A program made the position numbers and the translations under genes. The notes under the pieces are model-generated. The model was not told where the DNA came from, did not search any database, and saw only the letters and a program-made list of their open reading frames with translations. Shown piece by piece: positions 2,217-28,334 of a stretch of 64,000 bases of DNA (position 1 is the first letter of the stretch; every line of letters begins with the position of its first letter). Source of the stretch: a virus; IMG/VR virus record IMGVR_UViG_3300030104_005063, positions 1-64,000 of that record; one strand, written 5' to 3'.

Positions 2217-4121
2217 ATGGCTGAAAAAATTGTATCACCAGGTGTATTTACAAATGAAATAGACCAATCATTTTTACCTGCAACTGCCGGTCCAATTGGA
2301 GCAGCTGTTGTCGGTCCAACAGTAAAAGGTCCTGTATTAGAACCAACGGTTGTAACTTCTTACAGTGAGTTTGTCAATATTTTCGGAGAGTTAGTAGAAA
2401 GTGGTAGTGACAAATATCAGTTTTTAACATCACACACCGCTAAAGAATATTTAAGACAAGGTGGTCCTTTAACAGTTGTTAGGGTTGCTGAACCAGAAGG
2501 TAACACAGCAAAAGCTACTGCACAAATTAATAGTGGTTCAACTTCAAATGAGTTATTTACACTTGAAGCTTTAGGTGACGGACCTCAATTTAATAATTTT
2601 GTAGGAACAGGTTCAAATTTTGGAACTAACGGCACACTACCAGTAAGAACTCACTCTGTTTCTAACAATCAACTTTTGTCTGGTAGTTATGGGGGAAGAG
2701 CTGATAATTTTAGATTTGAAATATCATCTAGGAATCTTGCTAAAGGTACTTTTACTTTAGTACTTCGTCAAGGTAATGATTCAAATAATAAAAAAGTAAT
2801 TATTGAAACTCATGAAAATTTATCACTTGATCCAGCATCTACAGATTATATTTTAAAAAGAATAGGAAATCAAACATCAACTGTTGTTGTTGAAGATGGA
2901 CTTGCTTATGTTAGACCAAGTGGAGAGTATCCAAATCGTTCAAATTTTGTTCGTGTCAGTAGTCTTCCAGATAACAGAAAGACACCAAATTATTTAGATG
3001 AAAATGGTGATGTAACTTCTGCATATTCTTCTAACTCGGGCTCTTTCTTTCCATTACTTGGTAGTGGAAGTTATGGTGGTGCTTTTGGAGCTGGTACAGA
3101 TATAGCTGGTAATGCTCTAGTGGGTACACAGACCGGACAAACTGCCGGTTCAAATGGTGACCAAAATCAACAACACCCATTTGGTTTTTACGAGAATATT
3201 TCTGCGACAAATAGTCAAGGTATTGATATGGCTACTTCTGCTGCAAGACCATCTGGTACAACACCAAATGGTGGATATGCTACGGCTTTAAGTATCTTAT
3301 CTAACAAAGACGAGTACGATATAAACTTACTTTTCCTACCTGGTGTAATTGACCAATTGGCAAATCACTCTGCTATTATAGGACAAGCTATTGAAGTGTG
3401 TGAGGATAGAGGTGACTGTTTCTTAGTATATGACAATACCGCTTTGACCTCTAATGTGGCTACTGCAAAAGCAAACACAGAAGCTCGTAATTCTAGTTAT
3501 GCTGCTGTCTACTATCCTTGGATACAAATTCAAGATGCTACTGCTGTAGTAAATAGATATGTACCACCATCAGTTGTTATTGCTGGTGTTTATCACTTCA
3601 ATGATACTGTAGGACAACCTTGGTTTGCTCCTGCTGGTTTAAATAGAGGTGGGATAGATAGTGCCGTACAGGCATATAGAAAATTAACACAAAGTAATAG
3701 AGATGACCTTTATGAATCAAATGTCAATCCTATTGCTACCTTTCCTGGTCAAGGTGTTACTGTCTTTGGACAGAAAACAACACAGAAGAAAGCTTCTGCT
3801 CTTGACCGAGTAAATGTAAGAAGATTATTAATCAATCTTAAGAAGTTCGTTGCTAACTCTTCAAGAACTCTTGTTTTTGAACAAAATACAAGTGATTTAC
3901 GAAATCAGTTCTTGAATGTGGTGAACCCATATATGGAACAAGTACAGGCAAATCAAGGTCTGAATGCTTTCAGAGTGGTAATGGATGATTCTAATAATAC
4001 ACCAGAGACTATAGACAGAAATCAGTTGATTGGTCAGATATTTATTCAACCAGCCAGAACTGCTGAATTCATTGTATTAGACTTTGTTGTTCAACCAACC
4101 GGAGCTGCTTTTCCTGAGTAA
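2217..4121 (+). CDS. Contractile tail sheath protein (gp18-like)
   Basis: N-terminal SPGVFTNEIDQS...GPTVKGP; C-terminal YYPW, PPS, PWFAPAG.NRG, NVNPI, LDRVNVRRL and IQPARTAEFI sheath motifs. Confidence 0.95.
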   Translation: MAEKIVSPGVFTNEIDQSFLPATAGPIGAAVVGPTVKGPVLEPTVVTSYSEFVNIFGELVESGSDKYQFLTSHTAKEYLRQGGPLTVVRVAEPEGNTAKATAQINSGSTSNELFTLEALGDGPQFNNFVGTGSNFGTNGTLPVRTHSVSNNQLLSGSYGGRADNFRFEISSRNLAKGTFTLVLRQGNDSNNKKVIIETHENLSLDPASTDYILKRIGNQTSTVVVEDGLAYVRPSGEYPNRSNFVRVSSLPDNRKTPNYLDENGDVTSAYSSNSGSFFPLLGSGSYGGAFGAGTDIAGNALVGTQTGQTAGSNGDQNQQHPFGFYENISATNSQGIDMATSAARPSGTTPNGGYATALSILSNKDEYDINLLFLPGVIDQLANHSAIIGQAIEVCEDRGDCFLVYDNTALTSNVATAKANTEARNSSYAAVYYPWIQIQDATAVVNRYVPPSVVIAGVYHFNDTVGQPWFAPAGLNRGGIDSAVQAYRKLTQSNRDDLYESNVNPIATFPGQGVTVFGQKTTQKKASALDRVNVRRLLINLKKFVANSSRTLVFEQNTSDLRNQFLNVVNPYMEQVQANQGLNAFRVVMDDSNNTPETIDRNQLIGQIFIQPARTAEFIVLDFVVQPTGAAFPE

Positions 4122-22884: not shown

Positions 22885-24897
22885 ATGATTAAAAAGTTTG
22901 TTCTATCGGAGAATTTCATCAACAAGTATAAAAGAAGAAAAGCTCCTTTCGGTTTTAATGGATTAGGTGAATTAGTTTACATGAGAACCTATTCAAGAAT
23001 CAAAGAAAATGGTAAAAATGAAAGATGGTGGGAAACCGTACAGCGTGTTGTAGAGGGAACTTACAATATGCAAATGAATTGGATTGAATCACATCAATTA
23101 GGGTGGAATGCGTGGCAAGCTCAAAAGTCGGCTCAAGATATGTATGACCGAATTTTCAACATGAAGTTCTTGCCTCCTGGACGCGGTCTGTGGGCTATGG
23201 GTACACCTATCACAGAGAAAAAGGGTTTATATGCCGCCCTAAACAATTGTGCTTTCGTATCAACAAAAACACTCAAAGAAGATTATGCTAAACCTTTCTG
23301 TTTCCTTATGGATGCAAGTATGTTGGGTGTTGGAGTTGGATTTGATACGAAAGGTGCTGGAGAGATAGTAATAAAAGGTATAGATGAAAAAAGAGACGAA
23401 CAAGTCTATGAAATACCTGATACGCGTGAAGGTTGGGTTGAGTCGTTAAAATTACTATTGGAAAGTTACTTTCATGGTCAAGCACCGATGGAATTTGACT
23501 ATAGAAAGATAAGACCAGCAGGAGAACCTATAGCTGGTTTCGGTGGTGTATCAAGTGGGCATGAACCTTTAGAAGAAGTACACGAAGATATTAGAAAGGT
23601 ATTAGAAAAAAATAGTGGAGAACCAATCACTATCACGACCATCGTAGACATCATGAACTTAATTGGTAAATGCGTCGTAGCTGGTAATGTAAGAAGAACC
23701 GCAGAGATTGTATTTGGAGATTCCCATTCAGAAGAGTATTTAGATTTAAAAAATTATAAAGTAAACCCACACAGAGAAACTTATGGATGGACAAGTAATA
23801 ATAGTATATTTGCAGAATTGGGTATGGATTATACAGAGGCTGCCAAACGAATCGTGGATAATGGTGAGCCTGGATTTGCGTGGTTGGATAATATGAGAAA
23901 ATATTCTCGTATGAAAAATGGTGGAGATAATAAAGACCATAGAGCTATGGGTGGTAACCCTTGTTTAGAACAAACTCTTGAGTCATATGAGTTGTGTTGT
24001 TTAGTAGAAACATTTCCAAACAATCACGATTCATTTGAAGATTATGCTAAAACCCTTAAATATGCTTATCTATATGCCAAAACAGTAACACTTGGTAGAA
24101 CACATTGGAGTGATACAAACAGAGTTATGTTAAGAAACAGAAGAATTGGATGTAGTGTAAGTGGAGTTGCTCAGTTTGTTACCAATAGAGGATTAGATGA
24201 GTTCAAGGAATGGTTAAATAATGGCTACGATGTCATCCAAAAATGGGATAAACAATATTCAGATTGGATGGCAGTTCCAAGAAGTATCAAAACCACTTCA
24301 GTTAAACCAAGTGGAACTGTATCTTTACTTGCTGGTGCTACACCAGGTCTTCACTATCCTGAATCAAGATTTTATATAAGAAGAATTAGGTTATCAAAAC
24401 ACTCAGAATTAATAGAACCATTAGAAAAAGCTGGATATAAATTAGAACCAGCATTTGGTTCTGAAGACACTACTATGGTTGTCGATGTGCCCGTAGATGT
24501 AGGGGAAGGTATCAGAACTGCTTCTGAACTATCCATATGGGAACAATTCTCGTTAGCTGCGTTTTTACAACGACATTGGGCTGACAACCAAGTAAGTTGT
24601 ACGGTTACATTCAATCCTGAAACAGAGGCAAATCAGATTGCTCCTTGTTTAAACTATTATCAGTATCATCTAAAGGGTATTAGTTTATTACCAAGACATG
24701 ATTGGGGAGCATATCCACAAATGCCATATGAAGCGATTGATGAAGAAACTTACAACAAAGAAGTTGCAAAACTTGGTAAGTTATCATTTGGTGTGATAAA
24801 GAACGAAGAGGCTGATGTCGATAAGTTCTGTAACAACGATAGTTGTGAAATTCCACCTATGCATGGTGACAATGACGACCAAGAGTATGCTAACTAA
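22885..24897 (+). CDS. nrdJ: Class II (adenosylcobalamin-dependent) ribonucleotide reductase
   Basis: YMRTYSR, FLPPGRGLW, LNNCAF, VAGNVRRTAE, GNPCLEQ.L...ELCCL and TSVKPSGT motifs, plus a C-terminal C..DSC shuttle pair. Confidence 0.92.
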   Translation: MIKKFVLSENFINKYKRRKAPFGFNGLGELVYMRTYSRIKENGKNERWWETVQRVVEGTYNMQMNWIESHQLGWNAWQAQKSAQDMYDRIFNMKFLPPGRGLWAMGTPITEKKGLYAALNNCAFVSTKTLKEDYAKPFCFLMDASMLGVGVGFDTKGAGEIVIKGIDEKRDEQVYEIPDTREGWVESLKLLLESYFHGQAPMEFDYRKIRPAGEPIAGFGGVSSGHEPLEEVHEDIRKVLEKNSGEPITITTIVDIMNLIGKCVVAGNVRRTAEIVFGDSHSEEYLDLKNYKVNPHRETYGWTSNNSIFAELGMDYTEAAKRIVDNGEPGFAWLDNMRKYSRMKNGGDNKDHRAMGGNPCLEQTLESYELCCLVETFPNNHDSFEDYAKTLKYAYLYAKTVTLGRTHWSDTNRVMLRNRRIGCSVSGVAQFVTNRGLDEFKEWLNNGYDVIQKWDKQYSDWMAVPRSIKTTSVKPSGTVSLLAGATPGLHYPESRFYIRRIRLSKHSELIEPLEKAGYKLEPAFGSEDTTMVVDVPVDVGEGIRTASELSIWEQFSLAAFLQRHWADNQVSCTVTFNPETEANQIAPCLNYYQYHLKGISLLPRHDWGAYPQMPYEAIDEETYNKEVAKLGKLSFGVIKNEEADVDKFCNNDSCEIPPMHGDNDDQEYAN

Positions 24898-24907
24898 TGA
24901 AATGCGG

Positions 24908-24968
24908 ACAGGCAGACGACACACCTGTGAATAAAAATGTGTCTTAACAATAACAAAGCTAGGAGACA
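24908..24968 (+). ncRNA. Candidate cis-regulatory H-type pseudoknot (riboswitch-like) in the TonB receptor leader
   Basis: P1 ACAGG/CCTGT, P2 GACACA/TGTGTC, A-rich loop 3; alternative TGTCTT/GAGACA helix over the SD. Confidence 0.5.
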
Positions 24969-24972
24969 GATT

Positions 24973-27705
24973 ATGAATTATCGTAATCTCATCTCTGTTC
25001 TGATGATGTCAGTTGGTCTTGTCTTTGGACAAGCTGTTACTGGTTTTGTTGGAAACGGAGAAGAACCACTTGTTGGAGCAAATCTTGTGGTTGAAGGAAC
25101 TGAGCTTGGTGGCGTAACTGATTCCGAAGGAAAGTTCGTCATCGAAACAGGTACAGGTACTTTCGACTTAACTGCTTCATACATCGGTTATGTATCCCAA
25201 ACCAAAAGTGTAAGGGTTGGGGACATAGTTGGGAGTGTTAGTTTCGACTTAGAAACTGATGTTGTTGCTCTCACAGCACTTGAAGTTTTGGCTTCTCGTG
25301 CCGATGAAACAACACCCGTAGCCTACACTAATGTTAGTAAAGAGGAAATGGAAGTTCGTCTTGGTTCTCAAGACATTCCAATGATTCTTAACACAACACC
25401 AAGTGTATATGCTACTCAACAAGGTGGCGGTGCGGGAGATGCCCGTATCAATGTTCGTGGATTCAATCAGAGAAATGTTGCTGTCATGATAAACGGTGTT
25501 CCCCAAAATGATATGGAGAACGGATGGGTTTATTGGTCTAATTGGGATGGGGTAGGTGATGCTACTTCCTCAATTCAGATGCAAAGAGGTCTATCAGCCG
25601 TCAATCTAGCAACACCATCTATTGGTGGAACTATGAACATTATCACCGATCCTGCTGCCCAAGAAAAGGGTGGAAAGTTCAAACAGGAAGTCGGTGAGGG
25701 TGGATTTCTAAAATCTACCTTGAATTATAACTCAGGTCTAATCAATGATAAACTGGCAGTAAGTGGAACGATTGTTCGTAAAACCGGTGATGGTTTTATA
25801 GACGGAACATGGACAGACGCTTGGGCTTATTATCTTGGTACATCTTATGCTGTATCAGACAAACAGAGGTTTGAGTTATACGCAATAGGTGCACCACAAA
25901 GACATGGTCAGAACCTATACAAACAGAACATAGCAACCTACTCTCAAGAGTTGGCTGGAAGTATCGATGGATATAATGATTCAGCTTATGTTGAAGGGGA
26001 GAAGTTTGAACATGAAGCTGGTAGGTTCTTCAACCAAAATTGGGCTCCAGTATCTTCGGATTACAAAGGACAACAATATTGGTATATGTATGGCGCCAGA
26101 ACAACAGATAGGTACAATCCTAATCTGTTGAATGAAAGAGAAAACTTCTTTCATAAACCACTTGTAAATCTAAACCATTTTTATGATATCAATGATGAGA
26201 TGAGATTATCTTCGGTATTATATTGGAGTGGTGGTTCTGGTGGTGGTACTGGTACTTATGGAAGTGTCAGTAGAAAACCAGCTATTGAAGGAAACCAATG
26301 GTGGGCTAGTTCACCTTGGATGTGGGATTGGGATGCTGAGATTGAACAGAACTCTGCTAATGTAGACTCTGCTTGGTCTGATACAGAAAATCGTTCCACA
26401 GGTATCCTAAGAAACTCAATCAATAGACAGAATACTTATGGTTTGATTTCTAAATTAAACTATGATGTATCAGATGAACTTGAAGTTCAAGTTGGTATTG
26501 ATTGGAGAACTGCTGGTATTGAACATGCTAGAGAAGTTCGTGACTTACTTGGTGGAGATTACTATGTAGACTTTGCTGATGACAATTTTGCTGATGGTAA
26601 GAAAGTTGGGTTAGGTGATATAATTGCTTATCACAACGAAACCACAGTAGATTGGTTTGGTGCTTTCTTACAAGGTCAATACGATACAGAGAAGATTAAT
26701 CTTTATGGTATGGGTGGTATTTCAACCATCGAGTATACTTACAAAGACTTTTTCTCTGTTGAGAAAGAACTTGTAGAAGCTCCATCTATTACAACCTTTC
26801 AAGTAAAAGGTGGTGGTAGATATAATCTTGACGACAGACTTTCGGCATTTGCTAATGTCGGATATGTTCAGAAACCACCAATTCTTGATAATGTAATTGA
26901 CTATGATGGAAATGTATCTACAAATCCAGACAATGAGAAATTTACATCTTTTGAAATCGGTGGTGAGTATGGAAGTGAGTTAGTTGCTATCAAAGGTAGT
27001 TATTACAACACCCAATGGAAAGATAGGAACTTAACTAAATCTGTAACCACAGGTCAAGGTGACTCAGGTGACACAGACATCATTTATTTAACAGGTGTGA
27101 ATCAATCACATTCTGGTGTAGAGGTTGAATCTAAGATTGCTCTACACGAAATGGTGGACTTAGATGTTGCTGTTAGTATCGGTGATTGGTATTTTGATGG
27201 AGATGCGAAGGGTGATTATACTGAGATGGAATACAACGATGATAACCAAATCATTGGACAAACATCTACAGAATATCAGTATGCTTTAAGTAATCTTAAA
27301 GTTGGTGACATGCCACAAACTGCTTATGTTGGTGGATTAACATTAAAACCAATTAAAGGATTGAGTGTACAAGGACTTTACAGATGGTATGACAATCATT
27401 ATGCTGATTGGAGTCCTGATGCTCGTGAGGTTGACGAAGATGGTGCTGATAGGGCACAAGTATGGAAAACACCATCCTATGGTAAGTTAGACATACATGC
27501 TTCTTATAAGTTACCAGAAGTTGCTGGTTTAGACATGACATTAAGTGCTCATTTATTCAATGCACTTGATGATGTTTATATCCAAGATGCAACAGATAAC
27601 AGTAAGTATAATGGGTACGGTGATAAACTTCACTTGGCTCATAACGCTGAAGTATTCTTGGGAACACCAAGAAGTTTTAATTTAGGACTTTCTGTTAATT
27701 TCTAA
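24973..27705 (+). CDS. TonB-dependent outer-membrane receptor
   Basis: AGGAG SD with ATG at 24973; signal peptide, carboxypeptidase-regulatory-like N-domain (PLVGANLVVEGT..G..TD.EGKF), plug (INVRGF...VMINGVP), beta-barrel and terminal PRSFNLGLSVNF with C-terminal Phe. Confidence 0.93.
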   Translation: MNYRNLISVLMMSVGLVFGQAVTGFVGNGEEPLVGANLVVEGTELGGVTDSEGKFVIETGTGTFDLTASYIGYVSQTKSVRVGDIVGSVSFDLETDVVALTALEVLASRADETTPVAYTNVSKEEMEVRLGSQDIPMILNTTPSVYATQQGGGAGDARINVRGFNQRNVAVMINGVPQNDMENGWVYWSNWDGVGDATSSIQMQRGLSAVNLATPSIGGTMNIITDPAAQEKGGKFKQEVGEGGFLKSTLNYNSGLINDKLAVSGTIVRKTGDGFIDGTWTDAWAYYLGTSYAVSDKQRFELYAIGAPQRHGQNLYKQNIATYSQELAGSIDGYNDSAYVEGEKFEHEAGRFFNQNWAPVSSDYKGQQYWYMYGARTTDRYNPNLLNERENFFHKPLVNLNHFYDINDEMRLSSVLYWSGGSGGGTGTYGSVSRKPAIEGNQWWASSPWMWDWDAEIEQNSANVDSAWSDTENRSTGILRNSINRQNTYGLISKLNYDVSDELEVQVGIDWRTAGIEHAREVRDLLGGDYYVDFADDNFADGKKVGLGDIIAYHNETTVDWFGAFLQGQYDTEKINLYGMGGISTIEYTYKDFFSVEKELVEAPSITTFQVKGGGRYNLDDRLSAFANVGYVQKPPILDNVIDYDGNVSTNPDNEKFTSFEIGGEYGSELVAIKGSYYNTQWKDRNLTKSVTTGQGDSGDTDIIYLTGVNQSHSGVEVESKIALHEMVDLDVAVSIGDWYFDGDAKGDYTEMEYNDDNQIIGQTSTEYQYALSNLKVGDMPQTAYVGGLTLKPIKGLSVQGLYRWYDNHYADWSPDAREVDEDGADRAQVWKTPSYGKLDIHASYKLPEVAGLDMTLSAHLFNALDDVYIQDATDNSKYNGYGDKLHLAHNAEVFLGTPRSFNLGLSVNF

Positions 27706-27717
27706 AACGATAAATTT

Positions 27718-27745
27718 AGGGGGGTTGAAATATATCCCCCTTTTT
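27718..27745 (+). terminator. Rho-independent terminator
   Basis: AGGGGGG...TCCCCCT stem followed by a T tract, right after the TonB receptor stop. Confidence 0.8.
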
Positions 27746-27760
27746 ATCAAAGGTATTTAA

Positions 27761-28264
27761 ATGAAAAAGTTATTATTTTTATTATTATTATTATTTGGAT
27801 GTGACGATAGGATTGAAGAACCAAATAAATCAAATATTATAGTTACAATGCTAAGAATACCTAGAATAGAAATATTAGATAATATATGGATTACACCAGC
27901 TCCAATATGGGGACATTTAGAATCAGAAGATAGTATACCCGTTGAAAGAATGATTGTACATTGGTGGAGTAATATGTATTGGGATGAAGATGATTCAAGT
28001 GGACATTACAGATTGTTATCTAATCGTAGAAACAAAGCAATATGGTATGATAAATTTGGTAACAGAGATACTATGGATGTAGATGTAGATACATTAAGAT
28101 GGACTACAGATAGATACTCTGAAGTAGATAGTTTAGGATATTTTTTTAATACACTAAGACCTACAAGAGTAATGCAAAATAAAGGTTCGGGTAGTTATAT
28201 GAAATTGTATTGGAGTATTGAAAATACACTAATAGATTCACAAGAAGTTTTTTTAATGGATTAA
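27761..28264 (+). CDS. Lipoprotein of unknown function
   Basis: MKKLLFLLLLLFG-C lipobox signal. Confidence 0.75.
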   Translation: MKKLLFLLLLLFGCDDRIEEPNKSNIIVTMLRIPRIEILDNIWITPAPIWGHLESEDSIPVERMIVHWWSNMYWDEDDSSGHYRLLSNRRNKAIWYDKFGNRDTMDVDVDTLRWTTDRYSEVDSLGYFFNTLRPTRVMQNKGSGSYMKLYWSIENTLIDSQEVFLMD

Positions 28265-28272
28265 AAAAACAC

Positions 28273-28302
28273 TTGACTTGTATATGGTTTTGTTGTTATA
28301 TT
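28273..28302 (+). promoter_or_regulatory. Sigma70-like promoter upstream of polB
   Basis: A-tract, TTGACT-N18-TATATT with an extended TG. Confidence 0.6.
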
Positions 28303-28334
28303 TACATATCGAAAATGGGGATTTTATAATCTAA

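Follow-up and report, generated by a model that had tools for sequence, protein, structure and literature searches.

The window analysed here was a 64,000-nucleotide stretch of DNA, namely positions 1–64,000 of IMGVR_UViG_3300030104_005063, a 100.5-kb virus fragment with an estimated completeness of 55%; the source phage was a T4-like myovirus with a genome of roughly 180 kb. Every sizeable open reading frame (ORF) of the window was on the + strand, and the GC content was about 33%. The locus under study contained a gene for a TonB-dependent transporter (TBDT) directly behind the ribonucleotide reductase gene nrdJ, and its features up to the polB promoter were as follows:

22885..24897, + strand: nrdJ, encoding a 670-aa monomeric class II, adenosylcobalamin-dependent ribonucleoside-triphosphate reductase (RTPR type)
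24908..24943, + strand: H-type pseudoknot in the TBDT leader, with P1 (ACAGG/CCTGT), P2 (GACACA/TGTGTC), and an A-rich loop 3
24961..24975, + strand: Shine-Dalgarno (SD) sequence AGGAG, as read from the sequence, 7 nt upstream of the TBDT start codon ATG (24973)
24973..27705, + strand: TBDT gene, 910 aa, assigned by domains, fold, selection, and phylogeny
27718..27746, + strand: intrinsic terminator after TBDT, an 8-bp stem with 5 GC pairs followed by a T-run
27761..28264, + strand: orf167, whose translation is a small lipoprotein (lipobox LLFGC); a passenger in the TBDT–polB gap
28273..28330, + strand: sigma-70-like promoter pair before polB (promoter scan 10/12 and 11/12), forming the right boundary of the TBDT plus orf167 indel

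The TBDT protein was composed of a predicted signal peptide (residues ~1–20, with a basic n-region and a hydrophobic h-region), a CarboxypepD_reg N-terminal extension (~21–95), a TonB-box-like motif LEVLASR (~103–109), a plug (~112–232), and a barrel (233–910) ending in a terminal Phe (...SVNF). E104, V105, A107, S108, and R109 of LEVLASR were invariant; the TonB-box role of this motif, like the signal peptide, is putative and read from the sequence. The plug matched Pfam PF07715 (53.1 bits versus a cut-off of 23.9, and 57.3 bits in the genome search) and was nearly invariant over 40 phage and host sequences. A longer 922-aa frame from ATG 24937 displayed CarbopepD_reg_2 at residues 40–113 and Plug at residues 124–232, but ATG 24973 was taken as the start codon, because the same SD–ATG arrangement recurred in the leaders of 65 distinct relatives and ATG 24937 lay inside the leader pseudoknot. 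No Pfam barrel model matched TBDT; its AlphaFold2 model contained a barrel (mean pLDDT 71.8, barrel ~80), for which DSSP of the model gave an approximate count of roughly 22 strands. The best Foldseek matches of this model were Fiu, PqqU, FhuA, YncD, and FecA (E 1e-26 to 1e-22; 6.6e-26 to Fiu, and 1e-22 to FhuA and FecA), and such matches to a predicted structure are generic to the TBDT fold and do not discriminate between substrates. With plug, barrel, and C-terminal aromatic residue all present, the protein belongs to the TBDT superfamily, and the intact 910-aa receptor of the preliminary description (signal peptide, N-domain, plug, barrel, and C-terminal Phe) was borne out by the Pfam domains, the AlphaFold2/Foldseek results, and the start at 24973.

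No narrower family could be assigned with the models searched: (i) the SusC/RagA model TIGR04056 covered only residues 34–192 with 50.9 bits versus a cut-off of 368, placing TBDT outside that family, and no SusD-like neighbour was present in the phage locus or the conserved host neighbourhood, and (ii) the siderophore/haem receptor models TIGR01786 (48.3 bits versus 323.75) and MxcH (19.4 versus 925) likewise stayed far below their cut-offs. In PHROGs, the only match was to phrog_5687 (unknown function) and spanned the plug region; no name came from the ESM Atlas, and GenBank phage records gave distant matches only.

Relatives of TBDT were encoded in 326 IMG/VR stretches, and the context was examined in 80 of these loci, whose TBDTs were 74–92% identical. 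nrdJ was located directly upstream of TBDT in all of the 80 loci with upstream DNA, between DnaB/methylase and PolB; when the search started from nrdJ, 71 contigs had DNA beyond it, and in 63 of them the next gene was TBDT. In the window, the upstream flank of nrdJ–TBDT encoded a gp32-like single-stranded DNA-binding protein, UvsX/RecA, a 5′–3′ exonuclease, a DnaB-like helicase, and a DNA methylase, and the downstream flank encoded PolB and a gp44-like clamp loader, in agreement with the earlier observation that phage replication genes surround the pair. TBDT had a GC content of 0.39 versus a window mean of 0.33, but its GC3 of 0.26 equalled that of the PolB, DnaB, and UvsX genes. This conserved context in many contigs, together with the phage-like GC3, excluded chimeric assembly and recent insertion, and the gene is phage-encoded as first described.

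Eight of the 71 nrdJ-bearing relatives had no TBDT. Most replication proteins of the L197 backbone were 91–100% identical to those of the window (methylase 80%), and in L197 the nrdJ stop codon ran straight into the polB promoter segment; window positions 24898–28264 (leader, TBDT, terminator, and orf167) were therefore cleanly absent. L204, L219, and L270 also lacked the whole module. L249 (8025–8130), L254, and L259 were TBDT-less and yet kept the pseudoknot leader, the SD sequence, and the first TBDT codons after nrdJ; beyond the break came a 483-aa ORF, which matched in size the ORF located 3′ of TBDT in L014, L017, and L022, and these remnants are deletion scars.

Across 36 loci, mean pairwise identity was 85% for NrdJ, 81% for TBDT, 63% for DnaB, and 56% for PolB. 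TBDT was kept in phages whose PolB was just 26–55% identical, and it was still 76% identical where PolB was only ~28% identical. Compared to L003 and L011, the window showed 84–85% DNA identity over 22904–27751 (extending to 28269 in L011), while the flanks reached at most ~71%; between closest relatives, the TBDT barrel was less conserved than the backbone. The high conservation of nrdJ and TBDT is read as strong constraint with some recombination and not as proof of a jointly mobile cassette, because nrdJ was equally conserved (88–92%) in TBDT-less phages.

The cellular relatives of TBDT in species-representative genomes (51–68% identity) mostly bore Marinimicrobia/Fidelibacterota labels or belonged to unclassified metagenome-assembled genomes (MAGs). 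FastTree (151 rows) and IQ-TREE (53 rows) both placed all viral TBDTs in one clade (support 100, stem 0.24–0.26), which lay several supported nodes deep among the Marinimicrobia sequences. The comparison with host receptors that the preliminary description had called for thus gave a host origin for TBDT, and the host of this phage lineage is probably SAR406 (Marinimicrobia), as judged from this tree position. Three MAG labels among the relatives are unreliable: L081 (72% identity, labelled 'Flavobacteriales') was a misbinned phage contig, L082 ('Winogradskyella') was nearly identical to a Marinimicrobia sequence, and L094 ('Woeseiaceae') fell within the Marinimicrobia clade. A further 4.3-kb Neomarinimicrobiota MAG contig carried two tandem TBDTs (L083:986-4265), the first of which nested inside the viral clade; it may represent a phage-to-host return transfer or a binning/assembly artefact.

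NG86 dN/dS was ~0.13–0.15 over 2,989 viral TBDT pairs and was maintained at this level out to saturated dS. When pN/pS was calculated along TBDT in 20-codon windows, the values were 0.01–0.06 for plug residues 161–220, 0.12–0.25 for the plug flanks, 0.17 for the TonB-box region, 0.03–0.35 for the barrel, and 0.44–0.51 for the signal peptide plus N-terminal extension; no such window exceeded 0.51. This pattern is the one expected of a working transporter as opposed to an arms-race decoy. By sequence criteria, TBDT classes as a host-derived phage auxiliary gene: its viral clade is nested among host sequences, phage genes flank it, and it is under purifying selection.

The terminator and promoter scans found no + strand terminator and no promoter-like site in the nrdJ–TBDT gap; behind TBDT, the terminator scan placed a GC hairpin with its T-run at 27718–27741. 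Of the earlier claim of co-transcription, the missing terminator between the two genes and the strong one after TBDT were confirmed, and co-transcription itself is the likely consequence of this arrangement. The pseudoknot was supported by 53 distinct sequences, in which 98.3% of cells were paired and compensatory changes were found in 5 of 11 pairs; its score was reached by 0 of 500 shuffles, slid controls came nowhere near it either, and the loop residues were nearly invariant. No Rfam family matched the leader or the 8 kb around TBDT. The pseudoknot occurred once in the window and upstream of none of 58 host orthologues, and a search of ~60 whole host loci gave no match at E ≤0.01; it therefore evolved in the phage lineage. 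A separate motif, TTCACAT[AG], was located upstream of the pseudoknot, ~81 nt before the TBDT ATG, in 28 of 75 phage relatives, and three of 58 host leaders had it at a comparable distance (the near-identical L082 and L084, at 87 nt, and L086). It was absent from the source phage's own leader and showed no enrichment in the window, and it could be a relic of a host promoter or leader.

Outside the window, the same phage fragment encoded a second protein related to TonB-dependent transport:

G000:C1:91945-92259 (= L165:1387-1701), + strand: secreted TonB_C protein, 104 aa, with a signal peptide plus TonB_C (49.5 bits)

This gene adjoined a gene for an AAA_5 (CobS/MoxR-like) ATPase. Homologues, 48–56% identical, were encoded by four of the ten other TBDT-phage fragments and by no fewer than 22 contigs of IMG/VR, and nearly all members of the family were 103–113 aa long, without the transmembrane anchor and linker of host TonBs. 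The host TonBs had open frames of 209–229 aa and matched only over the C-terminal domain (28–37% identity). Going by experiments in E. coli, an anchorless TonB C-terminal domain would be expected to inhibit TonB-dependent uptake. An anchorless periplasmic TonB domain would be unable to transduce energy and may compete for TonB boxes.

Taken as a whole, the phage TBDT is probably (about 0.6) a functional host-derived transporter that was captured once from Marinimicrobia (SAR406) by the ancestor of a widespread marine T4-like myovirus lineage, and that has since been carried as a dispensable module, likely maintaining or raising uptake of a scarce substrate of the host. As judged by homology, it is an orthologue of the conserved stand-alone Marinimicrobia TBDT and not the host's B12-riboswitch-controlled receptor (see below). 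The module (leader, gene, and terminator) sits between nrdJ and the polB promoter. TBDT would be transcribed by read-through from the replication-gene transcript, and its translation would be governed by the phage-evolved pseudoknot leader; the protein would then be exported by Sec, inserted by BAM, and energized by host TonB–ExbBD, so that uptake of the usual scarce substrate of the host could be maintained or raised during a long latent period. Four observations weigh against this reading: (i) the host orthologues stood alone among SRAP, DnaG, CvpA, and YqeY genes, without a substrate-naming partner, (ii) the secreted TonB_C protein, by analogy, would be expected to inhibit rather than boost TonB-dependent uptake, (iii) TBDT was missing from 8 of 71 relatives, and any benefit must therefore be conditional, and (iv) the plug was badly modelled by AlphaFold2 (pLDDT <50), with a shallow alignment as the cause. 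Neither SusD nor btuFCD neighbours were found beside the host orthologues. A deoxynucleoside kinase gene was considered as a substrate clue and rejected as too weak, being within nine genes in 12 of 79 host loci and directly downstream in three.

The preliminary description had read TBDT as an auxiliary uptake system that feeds dNTP synthesis by supplying B12 to NrdJ; auxiliary uptake is retained as the best reading of a host-derived, intact gene under purifying selection, while the B12 link was not supported. The nrdJ product contained Pfam RNR_Alpha plus the RNR-II insertion domain, scored 371.7 bits against TIGR02505 (RTPR; cut-off 340), fell in phrog_367, and was 76–97% identical across related phages; a protein search for RTPR in five host genomes found none, which is a weak negative. 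Import of cobalamin by TBDT for this adjacent adenosylcobalamin-dependent enzyme would fit the invariable position of nrdJ directly upstream, the terminator-free gap, and the rank of the two genes as the most conserved of the locus, and a preprint on RTPR viruses speculates that they might enhance B12 uptake, with no mention of TonB (10.1101/2023.03.13.532061). It is nevertheless distinctly improbable: no cobalamin riboswitch (RF00174) was detected around the phage TBDT or in 13 host-orthologue loci, no BtuB model was matched at E ≤0.01 in the NCBIfam scan (only SusC/RagA at the N-terminus, a haem/transferrin subfamily, and MxcH, all far below cut-offs), the 100-kb fragment yielded no cobalamin adenosyltransferase, and the eight TBDT-less relatives kept a highly conserved nrdJ. 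TBDT shares with BtuB the general TBDT fold and TonB dependence, but it differs in its length of 910 aa with an N-terminal extension, as well as in the lack of a BtuB-model match and of a cobalamin riboswitch. Four of five host genomes (G001, G002, G003, and G005) harbored exactly one cobalamin riboswitch each, and in host loci L161–L163 it was located ~60–80 nt upstream of an ORF with CarbopepD_reg and/or Plug (open frames of ~690 aa in two of the three loci examined). One riboswitch-preceded host TBDT showed 22% identity to the phage TBDT over the N-terminal 176 residues, and another showed nothing significant; because the host riboswitch precedes a different TBDT paralogue, the phage TBDT is not the host's B12-riboswitch-controlled receptor. 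The riboswitch-controlled ~690-aa host TBDT is in itself a candidate B12 receptor for Marinimicrobia. If TBDT were an almost neutral passenger that occupies a hypervariable insertion site and gives no consistent benefit, its losses (three of the eight with scars) and the many different passengers in the adjoining TBDT–polB gap would be accounted for; this reading would not account for dN/dS of 0.13–0.15 out to saturated dS, for retention of TBDT where PolB has diverged to 26–55% identity, or for a conserved, covarying leader of its own, and we hold it to be very improbable. The chance that host DNA was joined to a phage contig by an assembly or binning error is practically nil: the elevated GC content of TBDT is its one favourable sign, but the same junctions recurred in dozens of independent contigs from many samples, GC3 equalled that of phage genes, a long stem separated the viral clade from host sequences, and the error observed was the reverse one, with phage contig L081 binned as a 'Flavobacteriales' MAG.

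A non-transport role at the cell surface, also raised in the preliminary description as a decoy or exclusion factor, would consist in excluding superinfecting phages, acting as a receptor decoy, or replacing the resident receptor, and the secreted TonB_C protein might contribute by shutting TonB-dependent entry of competitors. TBDTs are common phage receptors, and FhuA–T5 complexes were among the fold matches; the same genome and four of the ten other TBDT-phage fragments also have a gene for an anchorless TonB_C protein of 104–113 aa, and closest relatives differ somewhat more in the barrel than in the backbone. This role is disfavoured and appears rather unlikely, since the strongest constraint fell on the plug and TonB-box region, which are parts for transport and not for surface recognition, and since the ceiling of 0.51 on pN/pS left no arms-race signature at the resolution of 20 codons; moreover, an extra receptor would raise, not lower, adsorption to infected cells and debris. 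A broader proposal, which we consider unlikely, would combine the captured TBDT, pseudoknot-gated translation, and the secreted TonB_C protein into a toolkit that seizes TonB-dependent outer-membrane traffic: the pseudoknot might be a ligand riboswitch or a T4 gene 32-like operator for a phage RNA-binding protein, and TonB_C might silence or redirect the other TBDTs of the host, whose genomes each contained 7–24 Plug-domain genes. If this were true, the ligand of a pseudoknot riboswitch would name the cargo of TBDT.

The Marinimicrobia/Fidelibacterota stand-alone TBDT (uncharacterised, ~900–990 aa) had the same CarboxypepD_reg, Plug, and barrel arrangement with 51–68% identity and an almost invariant plug, while the phage copies differed from it by their long stem, phage-like GC3, and pseudoknot leader, and by their nrdJ–polB site instead of the SRAP/DnaG-side housekeeping genes of the host. 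Auxiliary genes of similar kind have been reported as a SusC-like TBDT gene of marine megaphage Mar_Mega_1 (PMC9723777) and as TBDTs in phages of ammonia-oxidising bacteria (10.64898/2026.05.02.722434); these were likewise phage-borne host-like receptors read as auxiliary uptake genes, but they belonged to other phage groups and hosts, and in tblastn the megaphage records covered only 22–29% of the phage TBDT protein at 24–27% identity. Unlike those TBDTs, the one described here was a module spread across its lineage, next to nrdJ and equipped with an RNA leader. The uptake genes of cyanophages and pelagiphages, such as pstS (PMC12379486), likewise are host-derived nutrient genes that form a viral clade within host sequences and are variably present in T4-like marine phages; PstS, however, is a periplasmic binding protein, while TBDT is an outer-membrane beta-barrel that requires Sec/BAM insertion and TonB energy. 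The literature search found no paper on this phage lineage or on the nrdJ–TBDT cassette, and no description of a characterised phage of SAR406/Marinimicrobia.

SAR406/Marinimicrobia are abundant and uncultured, and TBDT allows the host of a phage lineage present in >300 IMG/VR contigs to be assigned by phylogeny. A lytic-type T4-like phage keeps a large beta-barrel transporter under strong selection, which implies that outer-membrane assembly and the import of a specific scarce substrate continue in infected cells; the identity of that substrate would tell what limits phage production in SAR406 cells. Two short elements, the pseudoknot leader and the secreted TonB fragment, offer handles that can be tested, and the attractive story of B12 import for a B12 enzyme is corrected here as unsupported.

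The TBDT–polB gap was hypervariable and contained many alternative passengers among related loci. Its passenger in the window, orf167, had no Pfam, NCBIfam, or PHROG match, and an ORF of ~166–172 aa (orf167 or one of similar size) was present in just 10–11 of 70 related loci. Two further regions of the window were recognized apart from the locus:

2217-4121: tail sheath gene
36259-63701: sugar-biosynthesis cluster of ~27 kb

The latter was unusually large for a phage and contained genes for glycosyltransferases, NAD-dependent epimerases/dehydratases, a DegT-type aminotransferase, a GDP-mannose dehydratase, and a SPASM-domain protein.

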